Below are positions 4,975-51,277 of a DNA stretch of 64,000 nucleotides, piece by piece. The notes beneath the pieces were generated by a model, which did not search any database, was not told the DNA's origin, and saw only the letters and a list, made by a program, of their open reading frames with translations. The DNA is taken from assembly GCA_051715425.1 (NCBI GenBank), contig JBPXJS010000052.1, forward strand, positions 51,801 to 115,800, read 5' to 3'. The stretch comes from Bacteroidota bacterium (GTDB taxonomy: Bacteria; Bacteroidota; Bacteroidia; UKL13-3). The position numbers and the translations under genes are program-made. The number at the start of each line of letters is the position of its first letter. Position 1 is the stretch's first letter.

Positions 4975-4994
4975 AATACGCTAACTTGCGTATT
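4975..4994 (-). promoter_or_regulatory. Palindromic operator AATACGC-N6-GCGTATT abutting a probable -33 element
   Basis: 7-bp inverted arms; on the minus strand the palindrome ends in TTG, and TTGTTTTG (4952-4945, one mismatch to TAnnTTTG) follows 21 nt later. Confidence 0.55.
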
Positions 4995-5058
4995 ATCACA
5001 ACCAGCCCATTTTTACATGGCCCGATTATTAAAAAACAAACGAAATAAATAAATGAAA

Positions 5059-6366
5059 TTAGTCTTCCTGGGTCCAGTTGGCGCGGTCCATGGGGCTAAA
5101 CTGCCATGGTGCCTGGTTGTTTTCGAGGTTGCTAAACATATTATTAAGAGAACCCGGAGCTGATGATTGTTCCATTACTTTATACCTGCGCATCTCTACA
5201 ATAATTTCCATCGGATTAATATTTACCGGACAAGCTTCCACACATGCGTTGCAGGTATTACACGCCCACAATTCTTCTTCGCTTATATAACTGTGCAGGT
5301 TTTTTCCATCATCAACAAAAGTTCCATTGTTGGCATCAATATTTTTTCCAACTTCTTCCAAACGGTCGCGTGTATCCATCATCACTTTTCTTGGTGATAA
5401 TAATTTGCCTGTAATATTTTGAGGGCAACTGCTGGTGCATCGTCCGCACTCTGTGCAGGTGTACGCATCCATCAGGTTTTTCCAGTTAAGGTCCTGCACA
5501 TCTTTAACTCCAAAACTGGTGGGCGGCTGATAACCCTCCGGAGTAGCAGCTGCAGGATCGAGCATCAGTTTTACTTCCTGAGTAACGCTGGCCATATTAT
5601 TAAGGTTTCCTTTGGCTTTGAGGTTGGAGTAAAACGTATTAGGAAAAGCCATAATAATATGAAAGTGCTTGCTAAACGGCAGGTAATTCATAAAAGCAAA
5701 AATGCCCAGAATATGGAACCACCATGCCGCTCTTTCTATTAAAATAAGGGTAGCATCGGAAAAGCCGCTAAACAGGGGAGCCAATAACCATCCGCTCACC
5801 GGAAAAGCACCTGCCTGCGTATAATGCGCAACACCTCGTGATTGCAAAATCTGATCGGCTGCATTCATTTTAAGCAAAGCACCCATTAAAACAATTTCTA
5901 TAAACAATATGGTGGTGGCATCTTTATTTGGAAACCCTTTGAGTTCGGGGCTTTGAAAGCGGGCCAGTTTTACCATATGCCTTCTTAAAAGGAAAATAAT
6001 ACAAGCCAGCAGCACCCCAAATGCAAGCAGCTCAAAAAAACCAATGGCTATATTGTACACAGGACCTAAGAAGGAAAGTACCCGGTGTGTGCCAAAAATA
6101 CCGTCAATAAGAATTTCCAGCACCTCGATATTAATCAGTACAAAACCAATATAAACGATTAAATGCAGGATAAAAGGCACCGGCCTTGCAGCCATTTTGG
6201 TTTGTCCGAAAGCCACTTTAAGCATGGTTTTCCAGCGCTCGGGTTTGTTGTCACTAAGGTCTATATCCTTGCCTAAGAGGATGTTTCTGCGGATTTTACC
6301 CAGGTTTTTGGCAAACAGATAGATGGCCACCCCCGAAACAAGAACAAATATTAGCTGTGCAATCAT
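5059..6366 (-). CDS. Membrane Fe-S oxidoreductase (FadF N-half: NarI-like TM domain plus 2x[4Fe-4S])
   Basis: Several TM helices; PFSKHFH; CTECGRCTSSCP and CNTCNACVEACP. Confidence 0.9.
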   Translation of the reverse strand: MIAQLIFVLVSGVAIYLFAKNLGKIRRNILLGKDIDLSDNKPERWKTMLKVAFGQTKMAARPVPFILHLIVYIGFVLINIEVLEILIDGIFGTHRVLSFLGPVYNIAIGFFELLAFGVLLACIIFLLRRHMVKLARFQSPELKGFPNKDATTILFIEIVLMGALLKMNAADQILQSRGVAHYTQAGAFPVSGWLLAPLFSGFSDATLILIERAAWWFHILGIFAFMNYLPFSKHFHIIMAFPNTFYSNLKAKGNLNNMASVTQEVKLMLDPAAATPEGYQPPTSFGVKDVQDLNWKNLMDAYTCTECGRCTSSCPQNITGKLLSPRKVMMDTRDRLEEVGKNIDANNGTFVDDGKNLHSYISEEELWACNTCNACVEACPVNINPMEIIVEMRRYKVMEQSSAPGSLNNMFSNLENNQAPWQFSPMDRANWTQED

Positions 6367-37263: not shown

Positions 37264-37932
37264 CTATACAATAAAATACCCTTTACGGATGGCATACATG
37301 ACTAATCCGGCAGTGTTTTTTGCTCCTGTTTTTGCGAGCAGTCTGTTGCGATAATTTTCAATGGTTTTTGGGCCAAGGTTTAGCATGGTGGCAATTTCGG
37401 CATTGGTGTATTCAGAGCAAATCAGTTTTAGCAACTCGGCCTCCTGCTCGTTTAACTCTTCACCGGTAACACTTCTGTTTTCTCTGAAAGTATCTTTATC
37501 TACAATACTTTTAAGCAGCCTCAGGGAAATATTATGGTTAAAATAATAATCCTGATCCATCACCGTGCGTATAGCATCCACAATTTCATCGGGTGAAGAA
37601 TCTTTTAGCAAATAGGCGCTGGCACCGGCTTTAAACATGTTTACCACATGAAAATGGTTTTCGTAAACGGAGAGACCAATTACTTTAATGGCAGGATATT
37701 TTTGTTTAATCATATTGGTTGTTTCCACCCCGTCCATTCCTGTCATTTTCATGTCAACCAATATCACTTCAGGTTTTTGTTTTATTGCCTTAAGCCAAAC
37801 CAGCAGGTCTTCCCCGCAGGAAACATCAGTCATTATTTCCAGGTCCTCAAATGGCTGTAAGGAGGCCATCAATCCTCTTCTGAAAATCTGATGGTCGTCT
37901 GCAATAGCTATATGAATTACCGGATTTATCAT
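37264..37932 (-). CDS. NarL/LuxR-family response regulator
   Basis: IADDH, VILVDMKM REC domain; C-terminal TNAEIA...KTIENYR...KNTAGL LuxR HTH. Confidence 0.93.
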   Translation of the reverse strand: MINPVIHIAIADDHQIFRRGLMASLQPFEDLEIMTDVSCGEDLLVWLKAIKQKPEVILVDMKMTGMDGVETTNMIKQKYPAIKVIGLSVYENHFHVVNMFKAGASAYLLKDSSPDEIVDAIRTVMDQDYYFNHNISLRLLKSIVDKDTFRENRSVTGEELNEQEAELLKLICSEYTNAEIATMLNLGPKTIENYRNRLLAKTGAKNTAGLVMYAIRKGYFIV

Positions 37933-37941
37933 TTTATAAAA

Positions 37942-38742
37942 TTAAACAACAGGTATGGTAACATCAACCCGAATACCCTTATTTTTTTCGGACGTAAAAA
38001 CAATGGTACCGTTTAATGCACTTACCCGGCTTTCCATGCTCAACAATCCCAGGCCTTTTCCTTTTTTCTCTTCCACATTCATTCCCACCCCGTCATCGGT
38101 ATAAGTATAAACCAATTTATTCGTTTTGTTTTTAATATCAATAGACGCTTTTCTGGCACCTGCGTACTTTATGGTATTGTTAAGCAACTCCTGGGTTATT
38201 CTGAAAACAGCCTTCTCTATATCTCCAGGCAAACGTTCGGGTTCGCCTTCGTAATAATAGTTAATTTGCAGTTTGCCCGACTCATTTATTTTATAACACA
38301 TATCTGTAATGGCATCAAACAACCCAAAATCGTTGAGCACCACAGGCATTAATTTTCTTGAAATATTTCTGGTTTCGTTAATAGATTGTTTGTTTAACTC
38401 CTGCATGGAGTTTATTTGTTTCAGTATGGAAGGCTTATCTATTTCATTTTCTTTAAGCCTCGATTCCATGGTATTGAGGTTCATCAATAAGGTGGTAAGC
38501 ATCTGGCTCAGGCTATCATGGAGCTCGGCAGCAAACTGTTCCTTTTCGTTTTCCTGTGTGGCAATAATGGCCTCGAGCATTTTTTTCTGGTTGGCCATTT
38601 CCATCTCATGCAATTGCACCTTATGGTTAAGTCTTCTGCGTTCGTAAAGAATCACAAACAAAAATATAAATACAAACACCACGAGCATAATCATGGTTCC
38701 TGCAATAAGGATAAGGTTTATTTCGCTGTTCGTTTGCTGCAT
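37942..38742 (-). CDS. HisKA_3 histidine kinase with one N-terminal TM helix and no sensor domain
   Basis: AAELHDSLSQ H-box, QELLNNTIKY N-box, DDGVG, GLGL. Confidence 0.9.
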   Translation of the reverse strand: MQQTNSEINLILIAGTMIMLVVFVFIFLFVILYERRRLNHKVQLHEMEMANQKKMLEAIIATQENEKEQFAAELHDSLSQMLTTLLMNLNTMESRLKENEIDKPSILKQINSMQELNKQSINETRNISRKLMPVVLNDFGLFDAITDMCYKINESGKLQINYYYEGEPERLPGDIEKAVFRITQELLNNTIKYAGARKASIDIKNKTNKLVYTYTDDGVGMNVEEKKGKGLGLLSMESRVSALNGTIVFTSEKNKGIRVDVTIPVV

Positions 38743-39374
38743 ATAAAACCAACTGTATATAATATATTACTTGCGATATTCAAGCCGGAGTGGATAACCC
38801 ACATATTTTGATTCCATTCGTGTGACTTGCTTAAAATTACATTATATAACATAAACAAGAAACAATTACCCATAAAATAAAGCAACAAACCAGAGTTTAG
38901 CCAAAATGTAGGACGCTTCTCAAGTGGTATGTTGCTATGGCTATTCAACTTGTGATAAAAATAACCTAGCCCGGCAATCGTCAGAATAAAGGATTCTATT
39001 GTTCTAAATAAGGTATTAAACATCCAAATGTTACCTGCAGTGAGCATATAAACAACATCTGAAATAACAAATAAAACAAGGACGACAAGTATGGTTCTTT
39101 TAACAATAGTATTTGTAAAAAGAACATAAAAAAATACCAGTAGAAGTGATGCCTCAATAATAGTAAATAAATGAAGCTCCGGAAGATTATTGATATTATT
39201 CTTTGCCAATATCAGAGATACAAACTCTGATATTGTAGAGAAAAAGATGAGGTATGAAAATATTTTTACTGGAATACTTGAAACCCTGTAGCACGATACT
39301 GCCATGACCAGTGGAGGCAGTATCGATAATACAGAGATATCTGAAATTACATTATAAAAAGAATTGCTGTCCAA
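38718..39374 (-). CDS. Multi-pass (~7 TM) membrane protein, candidate co-sensor
   Basis: TTG start; about 7 hydrophobic segments; NNLPELH and FWLNSGLLLYF; overlaps the kinase start by 25 nt. Confidence 0.75.
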   Translation of the reverse strand: MDSNSFYNVISDISVLSILPPLVMAVSCYRVSSIPVKIFSYLIFFSTISEFVSLILAKNNINNLPELHLFTIIEASLLLVFFYVLFTNTIVKRTILVVLVLFVISDVVYMLTAGNIWMFNTLFRTIESFILTIAGLGYFYHKLNSHSNIPLEKRPTFWLNSGLLLYFMGNCFLFMLYNVILSKSHEWNQNMWVIHSGLNIASNILYTVGFICSKRTAK

Positions 39375-39382
39375 AGCAATAA

Positions 39383-39694
39383 CTAATTATTTAGTGAGTT
39401 TGCCATACCGCATTGGGATGGACAAGGTTTCGAATAATCCGCGACTACCCCATCAACCATATCGTTCTCATTGGCATCTGCCCCAACAAGGATAAGTTGC
39501 TGTGTTCCGTCATCGTCTAATGCATAATAAATCCGGATGCCTTCGCACCCCTCCTGTGCCAGAATTTCATTTAAAATATCTTTCCCAAAAAAGTGGGCCC
39601 TGATTCCTTCTGAATTGGCGTTTCTGTAATTGGCAGTCCAGGATGCTGCCTTGCTGAGCTCAATTGGAGCTCCTTCTGATCCGTTGAATGGCAT
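39383..39694 (-). CDS. Small protein with C-terminal PCPxxC motif
   Basis: 103 aa; GIRIYYA, LILVGAD, DYSKPCPSQC; first gene of the signalling operon; probable -7 TAAATTCG at 39729-39722. Confidence 0.8.
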   Translation of the reverse strand: MPFNGSEGAPIELSKAASWTANYRNANSEGIRAHFFGKDILNEILAQEGCEGIRIYYALDDDGTQQLILVGADANENDMVDGVVADYSKPCPSQCGMANSLNN

Positions 39695-39844
39695 AGTTGG
39701 TATTTGGTTAATGTTACATCACGAATTTATCTATTGTATTACAGAAAAAAACTGCCCGATCTGACGAACAAAAACCTAAAAAATCACAACAATTTGAGGA
39801 CTAAAGCAATAGGTTGATTTCGGGTTGATTTATTTCTAAAAAAA

Positions 39845-39882
39845 AGAGTGTTTTCACTCTATGAAAAGAGTGTTTTCACTCT
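39845..39882. promoter_or_regulatory. Tandem palindromic operator, copy 1
   Basis: AGAGTGTTTTCACTCT at 39845-39860 and 39867-39882 (22-bp period). Confidence 0.85.
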
Positions 39883-40082
39883 TTATAAAAATACCCTCCT
39901 TTTTAGCCTCTAAAATACCCTTCTGCCAATTGAAAAAGATAAAATAGCCTGTGTTAAGCCAACGTTTAACAAAAAATCTCTTTTTAACAGGGTAATTGAG
40001 CCTATTTACCTAAGCATCAAAAGTTAAGGCTCGATTTCGACACCCGCAATATCATTTTTTGAATAAATTATTCGCAAAAAAA

Positions 40083-40151
40083 AGAGTGTTTTCACTACTT
40101 AAAAAGAGTGTTTTCACTCTTGTATTGGGTAGGTATGATCAGGTAGTTTTG
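40083..40151 (+). promoter_or_regulatory. Tandem operator copy 2 plus promoter
   Basis: AGAGTGTTTTCACTAC 40083-40098, AGAGTGTTTTCACTCT 40105-40120; TTG 40120-40122, 21 nt, TAGTTTTG 40144-40151. Confidence 0.85.
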
Positions 40152-40178
40152 AATTTCCTAAACCTAATAACCACCATT

Positions 40179-40808
40179 ATGAACTATTTTATCTTTTGGG
40201 CAACCCTTATTTTGCTTGCCTTTATTATTCTTGTTCTCGATAAAAAATTTGGTATGCTGCGCGATAACAGCACTGCCAGTCCCAGGCCTTACAGTTTTTC
40301 CCGTGTGCAGTTGGCCTGGTGGAGCGTGATCATTCTTTCCTGCATTATCACGGTGATACTTGGAAGGCAATGGCAAATTCCTGACCTGAGCACCTCCACC
40401 CTTTATCTGCTCGGTATAAGCAGTGCCACCACGATTGGTGCTACCCTCATTGACCTGAGTGATCAAAACAATACCAATATCACCACACTGAATCAAAATA
40501 CCCAAAGTGAAAATTTCTTTCTCGATATCATGTCGGATAAAAGCGGGGTGAGTGTTCATCGGTTTCAGACAGTCATTTTCAACCTTGTTTTCGGGGTTTG
40601 GTTTATCAAAAACTTTTTGATGAATATCAACAATACCGCTATAGCTATAAATGATATTATTCCTCTGGTAACAGATAATAACCTGATACTGCTTGGAGTA
40701 AGTTCAGGCATGTACACGGCTATTAAAGCAACTGAAAACAAACAAAACAATACCAATACACCGGCCGCAACTCCTGCTGCCAACACAGAAGAACAACCCA
40801 TAGGCTGA
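40179..40808 (+). CDS. Multi-TM membrane protein (holin-like candidate)
   Basis: Start moved to MNYF (40179); hydrophobic segments with YSFSRVQLAWW, LLGIS, HRFQ, LLGVSSG; directly upstream of an amidase. Confidence 0.7.
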   Translation: MNYFIFWATLILLAFIILVLDKKFGMLRDNSTASPRPYSFSRVQLAWWSVIILSCIITVILGRQWQIPDLSTSTLYLLGISSATTIGATLIDLSDQNNTNITTLNQNTQSENFFLDIMSDKSGVSVHRFQTVIFNLVFGVWFIKNFLMNINNTAIAINDIIPLVTDNNLILLGVSSGMYTAIKATENKQNNTNTPAATPAANTEEQPIG

Positions 40809-47513: not shown

Positions 47514-47582
47514 AGAGTGTTTTCACTCTCAAAAAAGAGTGTTTTCACTCTTGATTCCTATATGTTTCATTTACCATCTTTG
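47514..47582 (+). promoter_or_regulatory. Tandem operator copy 3 plus promoter
   Basis: Palindromes 47514-47529 and 47536-47551; TTG 47551-47553, 21 nt, CATCTTTG 47575-47582. Confidence 0.85.
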
Positions 47583-51208: not shown

Positions 51209-51277
51209 AGAGTGTTTTCACTCTCAAAAAAGAGTGTTTTCACTCTTGATTTATATAGGTATACCTCTTTAGGTTTG
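51209..51277 (+). promoter_or_regulatory. Tandem operator copy 4 plus promoter
   Basis: Palindromes 51209-51224 and 51231-51246; TTG 51246-51248, 21 nt, TAGGTTTG 51270-51277. Confidence 0.85.

Follow-up and report, generated by a model that had tools for sequence, protein, structure and literature searches.

The stretch of DNA analysed here, hereafter the window, comprises 64,000 nucleotides of a Bacteroidota bacterium of the UKL13-3 lineage (assembly GCA_051715425.1, contig JBPXJS010000052.1). Between positions 37264 and 39694 it encodes a signalling cassette in which a histidine kinase, together with a response regulator, is preceded by two further proteins, a small accessory protein and a membrane protein with seven helices. 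All four genes are co-directional and lie on the minus strand, in the order small protein, seven-helix protein, kinase and regulator:

39383..39694, minus strand: small accessory protein gene (open reading frame, ORF, 103 amino acids, ATG start)
38718..39374, minus strand: seven-helix membrane protein gene (ORF, 218 amino acids, TTG start)
37942..38742, minus strand: histidine kinase gene (ORF, 266 amino acids)
37264..37932, minus strand: NarL/FixJ-type response regulator gene (ORF, 222 amino acids)

There are 8 nt between the first two genes; the seven-helix gene runs 25 nt into the start of the kinase gene, and the regulator gene follows after 9 nt. An initial annotation of the window had proposed a tightly coupled four-gene operon with gaps of 8, -25 and 9 bp, and its coordinates and spacings are confirmed. 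The small and the seven-helix genes are each present as a single copy in the genome from which the window comes.

The same annotation had described a kinase with one transmembrane (TM) helix and no sensory domain, paired with a NarL-type regulator, and the Pfam assignments agree with this. The kinase contains a HisKA_3 domain at residues 66-135 (E-value 2.4e-10) and a HATPase_c domain at residues 176-265 (7.1e-12); before residue 66 there is one hydrophobic helix and otherwise no domain, leaving the protein without a sensor domain. Its N-terminal part consists of about 8 residues outside the membrane, a single TM helix at around residues 9-33, which includes G15 and T16, and a coiled linker leading into the HisKA_3 and HATPase_c domains. 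In an alignment of 45 related kinases, the helix is followed by a basic stop-transfer motif with the consensus YQRR, while the phospho-acceptor H75 as well as D76, E185, N189, K192, G218, G220 and G232 are invariant. The regulator matches Response_reg (8.9e-22) and GerE (5.4e-10). The HisKA_3 histidine and the N and G boxes of the kinase, together with the receiver and the GerE helix-turn-helix (HTH) domain of the regulator, place the pair among the two-component systems. The scores for the NCBIfam equivalogs MctS/MctR, LiaS, UhpB, NarX/NarL and UvrY are all below the curated cut-offs. The best models for the kinase are MctS (123 bits, cut-off 700), LiaS (111 bits, cut-off 450) and UhpB, and the best for the regulator is MctR (128 bits, cut-off 300), with the UvrY and NarL models likewise below theirs. 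Scores this far below the cut-offs indicate that the pair is not a named system.

The small protein has an N-terminus devoid of any hydrophobic stretch and no signal peptide; its open frame is 111 amino acids long, with only 8 codons upstream of the ATG. The length of 103 residues and the lack of a signal peptide had been annotated correctly, but the protein does not end in DYSKPCPSQC, as had been stated: these are residues 86-95, and GMANSLNN follows. AlphaFold predicts a compact alpha/beta domain (predicted local distance difference test, pLDDT, 92.2), with helices at residues 13-26 and 38-45 and strands at residues 33-35, 50-59, 65-73 and 89-91; about 90 of the 103 residues are part of the confidently modelled fold. 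Comparison with the folds in the PDB gave no match (best E-value 0.12, template modelling score, TM-score, at most 0.27 among the matches listed), and a PDB sequence search with the small-protein profile returned one match at chance level (E-value 0.45). The C-terminal tail has the pattern S-x-P-C91-P92-x-x-C95 ... L101-N. Among 70 close relatives G5, E7, R24, G37, G52 and R54 are invariant, and the following residues are retained to varying degrees:

C50: kept in 68 of 70 close relatives
C91: kept in 66 of 70 close relatives
P92: kept in 69 of 70 close relatives
C95: kept in 61 of 70 close relatives
L101: kept in 68 of 70 close relatives
H34: kept in 55 of 70 close relatives

In four of the 70, both tail cysteines are lost together and the prolines are retained. 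A fused form of the small domain was not found among proteins of 273-2000 amino acids, the range covered by the search, which is weak evidence.

Neither the small nor the seven-helix protein has a family match in Pfam or NCBIfam; for the latter, the single sub-threshold Pfam match is to DUF7649, with an E-value of 0.085. The seven-helix protein is modelled by AlphaFold with seven helices (pLDDT 96, predicted TM-score, pTM, 0.91), which together with the lack of a family match bears out its annotation as a protein of about seven TM helices without a catalytic domain. An exhaustive HMMER search returned 2051 representative relatives at an E-value of at most 0.001, and 496 at 1e-10. In the best 150 of the 2051, lengths range over 142-262 amino acids throughout and no fused form is found. 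Comparison of the model with the PDB by Foldseek led to G-protein-coupled receptors (GPCRs; the beta-adrenergic receptor) and proton-pumping microbial rhodopsins, with TM-scores of 0.5-0.61 and a probability of around 0.99; the E-values, 0.048 or worse, are not significant. The likeness of the predicted structure to GPCRs and rhodopsins is one of general fold only, and not a family assignment; a PDB sequence search with the seven-helix profile gave no match.

Averaged over 70 aligned sequences, loops 1, 3 and 5 and the C-terminal tail contain 2.09, 2.46, 1.84 and 2.30 lysine plus arginine residues, summing to 8.7 per sequence, compared with 0.41, 0.63, 0.37 and 0.63 on the opposite face, summing to 2.0 per sequence. 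The N-terminus is thus predicted to be outside and the C-terminus inside, and paralogous loci agree. With seven TM helices and this orientation, the protein has, by prediction alone, the general features of a seven-helix receptor. No column of the alignment is invariant, which speaks against an enzyme. Those polar positions that are better conserved (E50, N62/N63, H68, E74, N120, W192, H195 and N199) lie towards the predicted outer half, and helix 7 keeps W192, H195, N199 and N203. A conserved lysine in helix 7, by which a microbial rhodopsin would be recognized, is absent from the 70-sequence alignment, making retinal binding unlikely. As for the PAQR/HlyIII family, the window protein has no Pfam HlyIII match and two of the 70 relatives have weak ones (best E-value 4.6e-4). 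The lack of an invariant residue, the GPCR- and rhodopsin-like fold of the model and the outward-directed polar positions suggest that the seven-helix protein is receptor-like rather than enzyme-like. The kinase helix runs from outside to inside; with the C-terminus of the seven-helix protein inside, as predicted, a fusion of the two would place the kinase domain outside the cell. Such a topological bar would explain why the seven-helix protein and the kinase remain separate genes.

For comparison with other genomes, contigs of one genome per species were scanned, giving 190 relatives of the small gene, of which 80 loci (numbered with the prefix L) were kept. The ORFs in these were compared with the four window proteins and with the membrane-protein profile. 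Loci with at least 700 bp downstream were assessable for the membrane gene (77 loci), and those with at least 2300 bp for the full order (67 loci). ORF calling was mechanical and took the first start codon following a stop, which makes some N-termini too long; the sampled genomes are interrelated, and the locus counts do not represent independent events. In all 77 assessable loci the seven-helix gene is directly downstream of the small gene and on the same strand, so the pairing is far beyond chance. The full order of small protein, seven-helix protein, HisKA_3 kinase and regulator is found in 55 of 67. In two of the other 12 (L057 and L066) the kinase is of another build, and ten, mostly from Fluviicola or Crocinitomicaceae, have no kinase nearby. 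The seven kinase-less pairs inspected closely sit next to LuxR-type proteins that either have 4-7 TM helices and end in a GerE domain or carry two or three repeats of it; these GerE-bearing neighbours may be membrane-bound one-component transducers. The pair of small and seven-helix protein is an invariant core that is combined with different transducers. There is no further conserved neighbour: the cassette genes are present in 75, 71, 61 and 57 of the 80 loci, and the next cluster in 10. In Pontibacter and Hymenobacter, which include cultured isolates with the cassette, the regulator is about 138 amino acids long and consists of the receiver only (for example L020, L022, L023, L027 and L033, with Pfam checked for L020); lacking a DNA-binding domain, its output must run via another partner. 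Either of the first two genes may also occur in tandem: two or three seven-helix genes in a row (for example L030, 6311-7657, and L081, 6309-8265), or two small-protein genes in a row (for example G393:C3, 124641-125441, and G365:C135, 4242-4892).

The seven-helix family is present in 94 of 401 sampled Bacteroidota genomes (62 of 180 genera), in up to 7 copies, and the small-protein family in 49 of the 401 (34 genera). A large protein collection contains 60 relatives of the small protein, each either without a name or labelled 'hypothetical'; they come from Pontibacter, Mucilaginibacter and Bacteroidota metagenome bins. The Protein Atlas connects the small protein only to unnamed Bacteroidota clusters, and offers no usable named match for the seven-helix protein; full-text literature searches found no publication on the cassette. 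Both accessory families are uncurated, and the four-gene cassette is a widespread but undescribed signalling unit of Bacteroidota.

The link between the seven-helix protein and the kinase was followed in 40 further seven-helix loci, from genomes without a match to the small-protein profile or with none beside that copy of the gene. A histidine kinase gene comes next, on the same strand, in all 40. Thirty-eight of these kinases were recognized by similarity to the window kinase (phmmer) and two by Pfam (HisKA types, one with PAS and receiver domains). A regulator follows the kinase in 35; of the other five loci, one is at a contig edge, one has a hybrid kinase, and in three none was seen. Some kinases next to seven-helix genes are of another build, helix-PAS-HisKA-HATPase-REC in L057, L066 and L108 and helix-PAS-HisKA_3 in L047, and all of these start with one TM helix. 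The G-T pair in this helix is retained in all four, while among the 45 cassette kinases G15 is found in 25 and T16 in 27. Retention of the pair across kinase builds indicates that the helix, and not the catalytic part, is the constant element, as expected if it were the contact with the seven-helix protein. The observed adjacency supports a tie between the seven-helix protein and a single-helix, sensorless kinase, and fits a split receptor. Four loci (L092, L094, L096 and L098) have seven-helix, kinase and regulator genes without an upstream accessory gene, but with a second, divergently placed regulator. Their seven-helix sequences are related to one another and have other residues in place of the outward-facing N62, N63, N120 and N199.

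Directly upstream of the seven-helix gene, 34 of the 40 further loci encode a protein of 77-367 amino acids on the same strand. Twenty of these 34 have Cys-Pro near the C-terminus (PCPHLC, PCPPVC, TPCPPGT and LCPDVC, for example), and the other 14 have a proline tail without Cys-Pro, such as PTPPPS or PSPPKPP. These proteins and the close relatives bear out the statement in the initial annotation that similar PCPxxC proteins precede such genes in other Bacteroidota. Six of the 16 upstream proteins of the first batch match the small-protein profile (1.7e-8 to 3e-3), and that of L093 was included by jackhmmer at 6.9e-16 with a conservative database size. The L093 protein and its 38%-identical relative L124, from another genus, have a lipoprotein signal at the N-terminus, and P0049, a close relative of the small protein, has a lipobox-like N-terminus. 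Inspection by eye assigned a signal peptide or anchor to about 15 of these 34 proteins, five of the 20 with a Cys-Pro tail and ten of the 14 without. From these sequences, the shared feature of the first gene is a proline-containing C-terminal tail, the cysteine-bearing forms being mostly predicted to lack a signal peptide and the cysteine-free forms mostly to be exported. No clear pattern relates the tail type, with or without cysteine, to the His and Glu positions of the seven-helix protein.

One viral contig of 68.7 kb from IMG/VR (L125, positions 4992-5914) carries homologues of the small and seven-helix genes with a 4-nt overlap. The small-protein relative is 33% identical (E-value 8e-16), and the 203-aa protein encoded next to it matches the seven-helix profile with an hhalign probability of 98.9% (E-value 1.5e-17). 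There is no kinase in the 10.3-kb stretch fetched around the pair (5 kb per side), which adjoins a virion structural gene (phrog_22602, 4e-52) and a multi-HTH, repressor-like gene. Neither protein was matched in GenBank phages, and the phage copy, used as query, found only itself. The viral pair agrees with a self-contained unit acting on a kinase encoded elsewhere, although a single contig is thin evidence.

Co-variation was analyzed from pairwise-distance matrices of 58 complete loci. All four proteins have mutually correlated matrices (r 0.67-0.92), in keeping with co-inheritance. The partial correlation of the small protein with the kinase is 0.49, and with the seven-helix protein 0.11. 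The small protein is the slowest-evolving of the four, with a mean p-distance of 0.50 compared with 0.63-0.78 for the other three, of which the seven-helix protein is the fastest (0.78). This speaks against a fast-diversifying pheromone.

The reading that we favour, tentatively and at somewhat less than even confidence, is that the seven-helix protein serves the sensorless kinase as transmembrane input partner, with the small protein as an accessory subunit of the former and the tail as a contact. The seven-helix protein would reside in the inner membrane, N-terminus out and C-terminus in, pack against the kinase's one N-terminal helix and supply the signal-input domain that the kinase lacks; the kinase would in turn control phosphorylation of the NarL-type regulator. 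The small protein may be a dedicated accessory subunit, a co-sensor or modulator, of the seven-helix protein, and its conserved Cys-Pro C-terminal tail may provide the functional contact. The initial annotation had proposed a split receptor of this kind, and the conservation of the neighbourhood that it suggested as a check was found, for the small and seven-helix genes (77 of 77), for the whole cassette (55 of 67) and for the seven-helix and kinase genes (40 of 40). The kinase link is supported; the small protein as an agr-like signal precursor is not. A more speculative version, which we think has a limited chance of being right, is an input module of Bacteroidota that is GPCR-like and portable. 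In it, the Pro/Cys tail of the dedicated partner protein would act as a tethered protein ligand and gate a minimal seven-helix receptor, which would signal sideways in the membrane to an adjacent single-helix transducer (HisKA_3 kinase, hybrid kinase or membrane-bound LuxR regulator); phages might borrow the two genes to rewire host signalling.

Several observations weigh against the favoured assignment of roles. The contacts of the seven-helix protein with the kinase helix and with the small protein, and the direction of regulation, are inferred, and the seven-helix topology is a prediction by the positive-inside rule. Ten of the 67 assessable loci have the small and seven-helix genes and no kinase nearby; the seven of these inspected closely (L015, L018, L028, L030, L035, L037 and L082) have a multi-helix or GerE-type protein upstream, the other three being L007, L021 and L029. 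Four of the 40 seven-helix and kinase loci lack an upstream protein, so the pairing does not require the small one. The co-variation proposed as a check in the initial annotation did not single out the small and seven-helix proteins, whose correlation (r 0.665) is below that of the small protein with the kinase (0.754) and of the kinase with the regulator (0.916). Finally, lipoprotein relatives (L093, L124 and P0049) exist of a window protein without signal peptide; the same domain would occur on both faces of the membrane, which is awkward for a single docking model.

Alternatively, the small protein could itself be a cytoplasmic thiol, metal or heme switch, using C50, C91, C95 and perhaps H34, with its state relayed to the kinase via the seven-helix protein. 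Heme-regulatory motifs have Cys-Pro at their core, and the copper site of Sco proteins is similar to CPxxC; the four residues are retained in 55 to 68 of the 70 relatives, the joint loss of the tail cysteines suggests that they act as a pair, and C50 is missing from the exported relatives L093 and L124. The redox- or metal-binding modulator named in the initial annotation may apply to the Cys-tailed forms. A switch is nonetheless unlikely in our view: the four relatives without tail cysteines do have the tail prolines, 14 of the 34 analogous upstream proteins lack Cys-Pro, P92 and L101 are better kept than C95, and neither sequence nor fold matches a solved metal or redox protein in the PDB. 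The two upstream proteins might also be feedback auxiliaries like SaeP and SaeQ, which would bind the kinase and either stabilise it or push its phosphatase activity, the kinase helix sensing membrane perturbation. We hold this to be less probable still, as a seven-helix bundle with outward polar residues exceeds what a scaffold needs, and the pair is retained with unrelated transducers and on the kinase-less viral contig. The operon logic is indeed that of saePQRS, in that a polytopic protein and an intramembrane-type kinase are accompanied by an accessory protein, in some variants a lipoprotein, and the partial correlations, by which the small-protein distances track the kinase over the seven-helix protein, would favour such auxiliaries.

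In agr- or Com-like signalling, the membrane protein would cleave off the Cys-Pro tail of the small protein, modify it and export it, and the kinase would sense what results. In gene order the cassette is reminiscent of agrBDCA and comQXPA, its kinase and regulator belong to the ComP/ComA class (HisKA_3 and GerE), a conserved tail is what marks the upstream proteins in spite of their diversity, and a phage with only the first two genes would also fit signal production. Pheromone precursors, however, evolve fast, the opposite of the small protein, most of whose residues belong to a confident fold. The membrane protein has no invariant catalytic candidate and no match to AgrB or another enzyme family, and no conserved exporter or maturase gene is present near the 80 loci. 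The kinase exposes just about 8 residues outside, and its gene is translationally coupled to the membrane gene and adjacent to it in 40 of 40 loci. Such signalling is improbable, and the small protein as a signal precursor, as initially annotated, is not supported, in view of its being the product of the most conserved of the four genes, of its folded domain and of the lack of an invariant catalytic residue and of a conserved exporter or maturase gene. The 25-nt overlap of reading frames could, in principle, indicate that the membrane and kinase genes are halves of one gene broken by a frameshift or assembly error. For practical purposes this is refuted by the comparative data: the two-gene arrangement recurs across many genera, at over 100 loci, the best 150 relatives include no fused one, and the predicted topology would forbid a functional fusion.

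In operon logic, the closest described system is saePQRS of Staphylococcus aureus, with no homology claimed. According to a review (PMC5083920), the lipoprotein SaeP and the four-helix SaeQ assemble with the intramembrane-sensing kinase SaeS into a ternary complex and turn on its phosphatase activity. In both systems, a regulator and a kinase without sensor domain are encoded together with a small accessory protein and a polytopic membrane protein, in four genes in all, but SaeQ has four helices instead of seven, and SaeS two helices and a HAMP domain instead of one helix (PMC5083920). Some paralogues of the window cassette resemble SaePQRS further in having a lipoprotein in first position. 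The Sae gene order is P-Q-R-S and the small protein of the window has no signal peptide; the two are likened by layout alone. A similar case is that of LiaFSR and VraTSR, which respond to cell-envelope stress: a sensor-less HisKA_3 kinase and a NarL-type regulator are under the control of a membrane protein encoded just upstream, but their kinases have two helices rather than one, the extra small protein is absent from Lia, and the sequences are unrelated to those of the cassette. Pfam finds no LiaF-family domain in the window seven-helix protein or its 70 relatives. AgrBDCA and ComQXPA, likewise of four genes, also place a small protein together with a membrane or modifying protein ahead of kinase and regulator, and ComP and ComA share the HisKA_3 and GerE classes. 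The kinases of those systems have 6-10 helices, whereas that of the cassette has one, the Agr regulator is of the LytTR and not the GerE type, and the small protein is long, folded and encoded by the most conserved gene. The membrane protein has no match to the AgrB or ComQ families and its 70 relatives none to Pfam AgrB, so the cassette does not qualify as an agr system. With GPCRs, microbial rhodopsins and 7TMR-DISM proteins, the seven-helix protein shares the number of helices and the predicted orientation, N-terminus outside and C-terminus inside. It differs from all three in having just 218 amino acids with minimal loops and no sequence-family match, and from 7TMR-DISM proteins also in not being fused to an output domain. 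To our knowledge, no stand-alone GPCR-like seven-helix partner of a kinase has been described.

Many kinases lack a sensor domain, and it is seldom known where their signal comes from. The cassette, with 2051 representative clusters of the seven-helix family and an occurrence in 94 of 401 genomes, provides a large natural series for the input of such kinases. As a two-component system with accessory membrane proteins it is of a known kind; the two accessory families are new to curation and to the searched literature. If the split receptor is true, it would represent a new class of bacterial seven-helix sensors and a testable model for the passage of signals between separate membrane proteins, and would explain the carriage of the pair by a phage.

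Upstream of the small gene and further along the window lie the following features (window positions):

39695..40058, no strand assigned: intergenic region upstream of the small gene, presumed promoter, with two palindromic 16-mer copies and short direct repeats
39845-39882, 40083-40120, 47514-47551 and 51209-51246: palindromic 16-mer pairs

The palindromic 16-mer has a 6-bp stem and an AAAA loop, and usually comes as two tandem copies with a spacing of 22 nt and a run of T behind them. Eight near-exact copies are present in the window, where 0.02 are expected by chance, and 55 copies with at most one mismatch in the genome, compared with 0 for the reversed control. The pair was considered as the operator of the cassette and rejected, given the 55 copies genome-wide and its absence from all 100 fetched loci of other genomes; it looks like a genome-specific dispersed element similar to repetitive extragenic palindromes (REP). 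No operator was identified in 39695..40058. A scan for sigma-70 promoters performed at chance level (10 found, 9.7 expected), and a terminator scan (7 found, 2.7 expected) gave no convincing site after the regulator gene. Beyond the intergenic region lies a divergent ORF for a membrane protein of 249 amino acids (40059-40808), with no family in Pfam or NCBIfam. As one of the palindromic pairs lies in the first 62 nt of this ORF, the real start codon is probably located further downstream.

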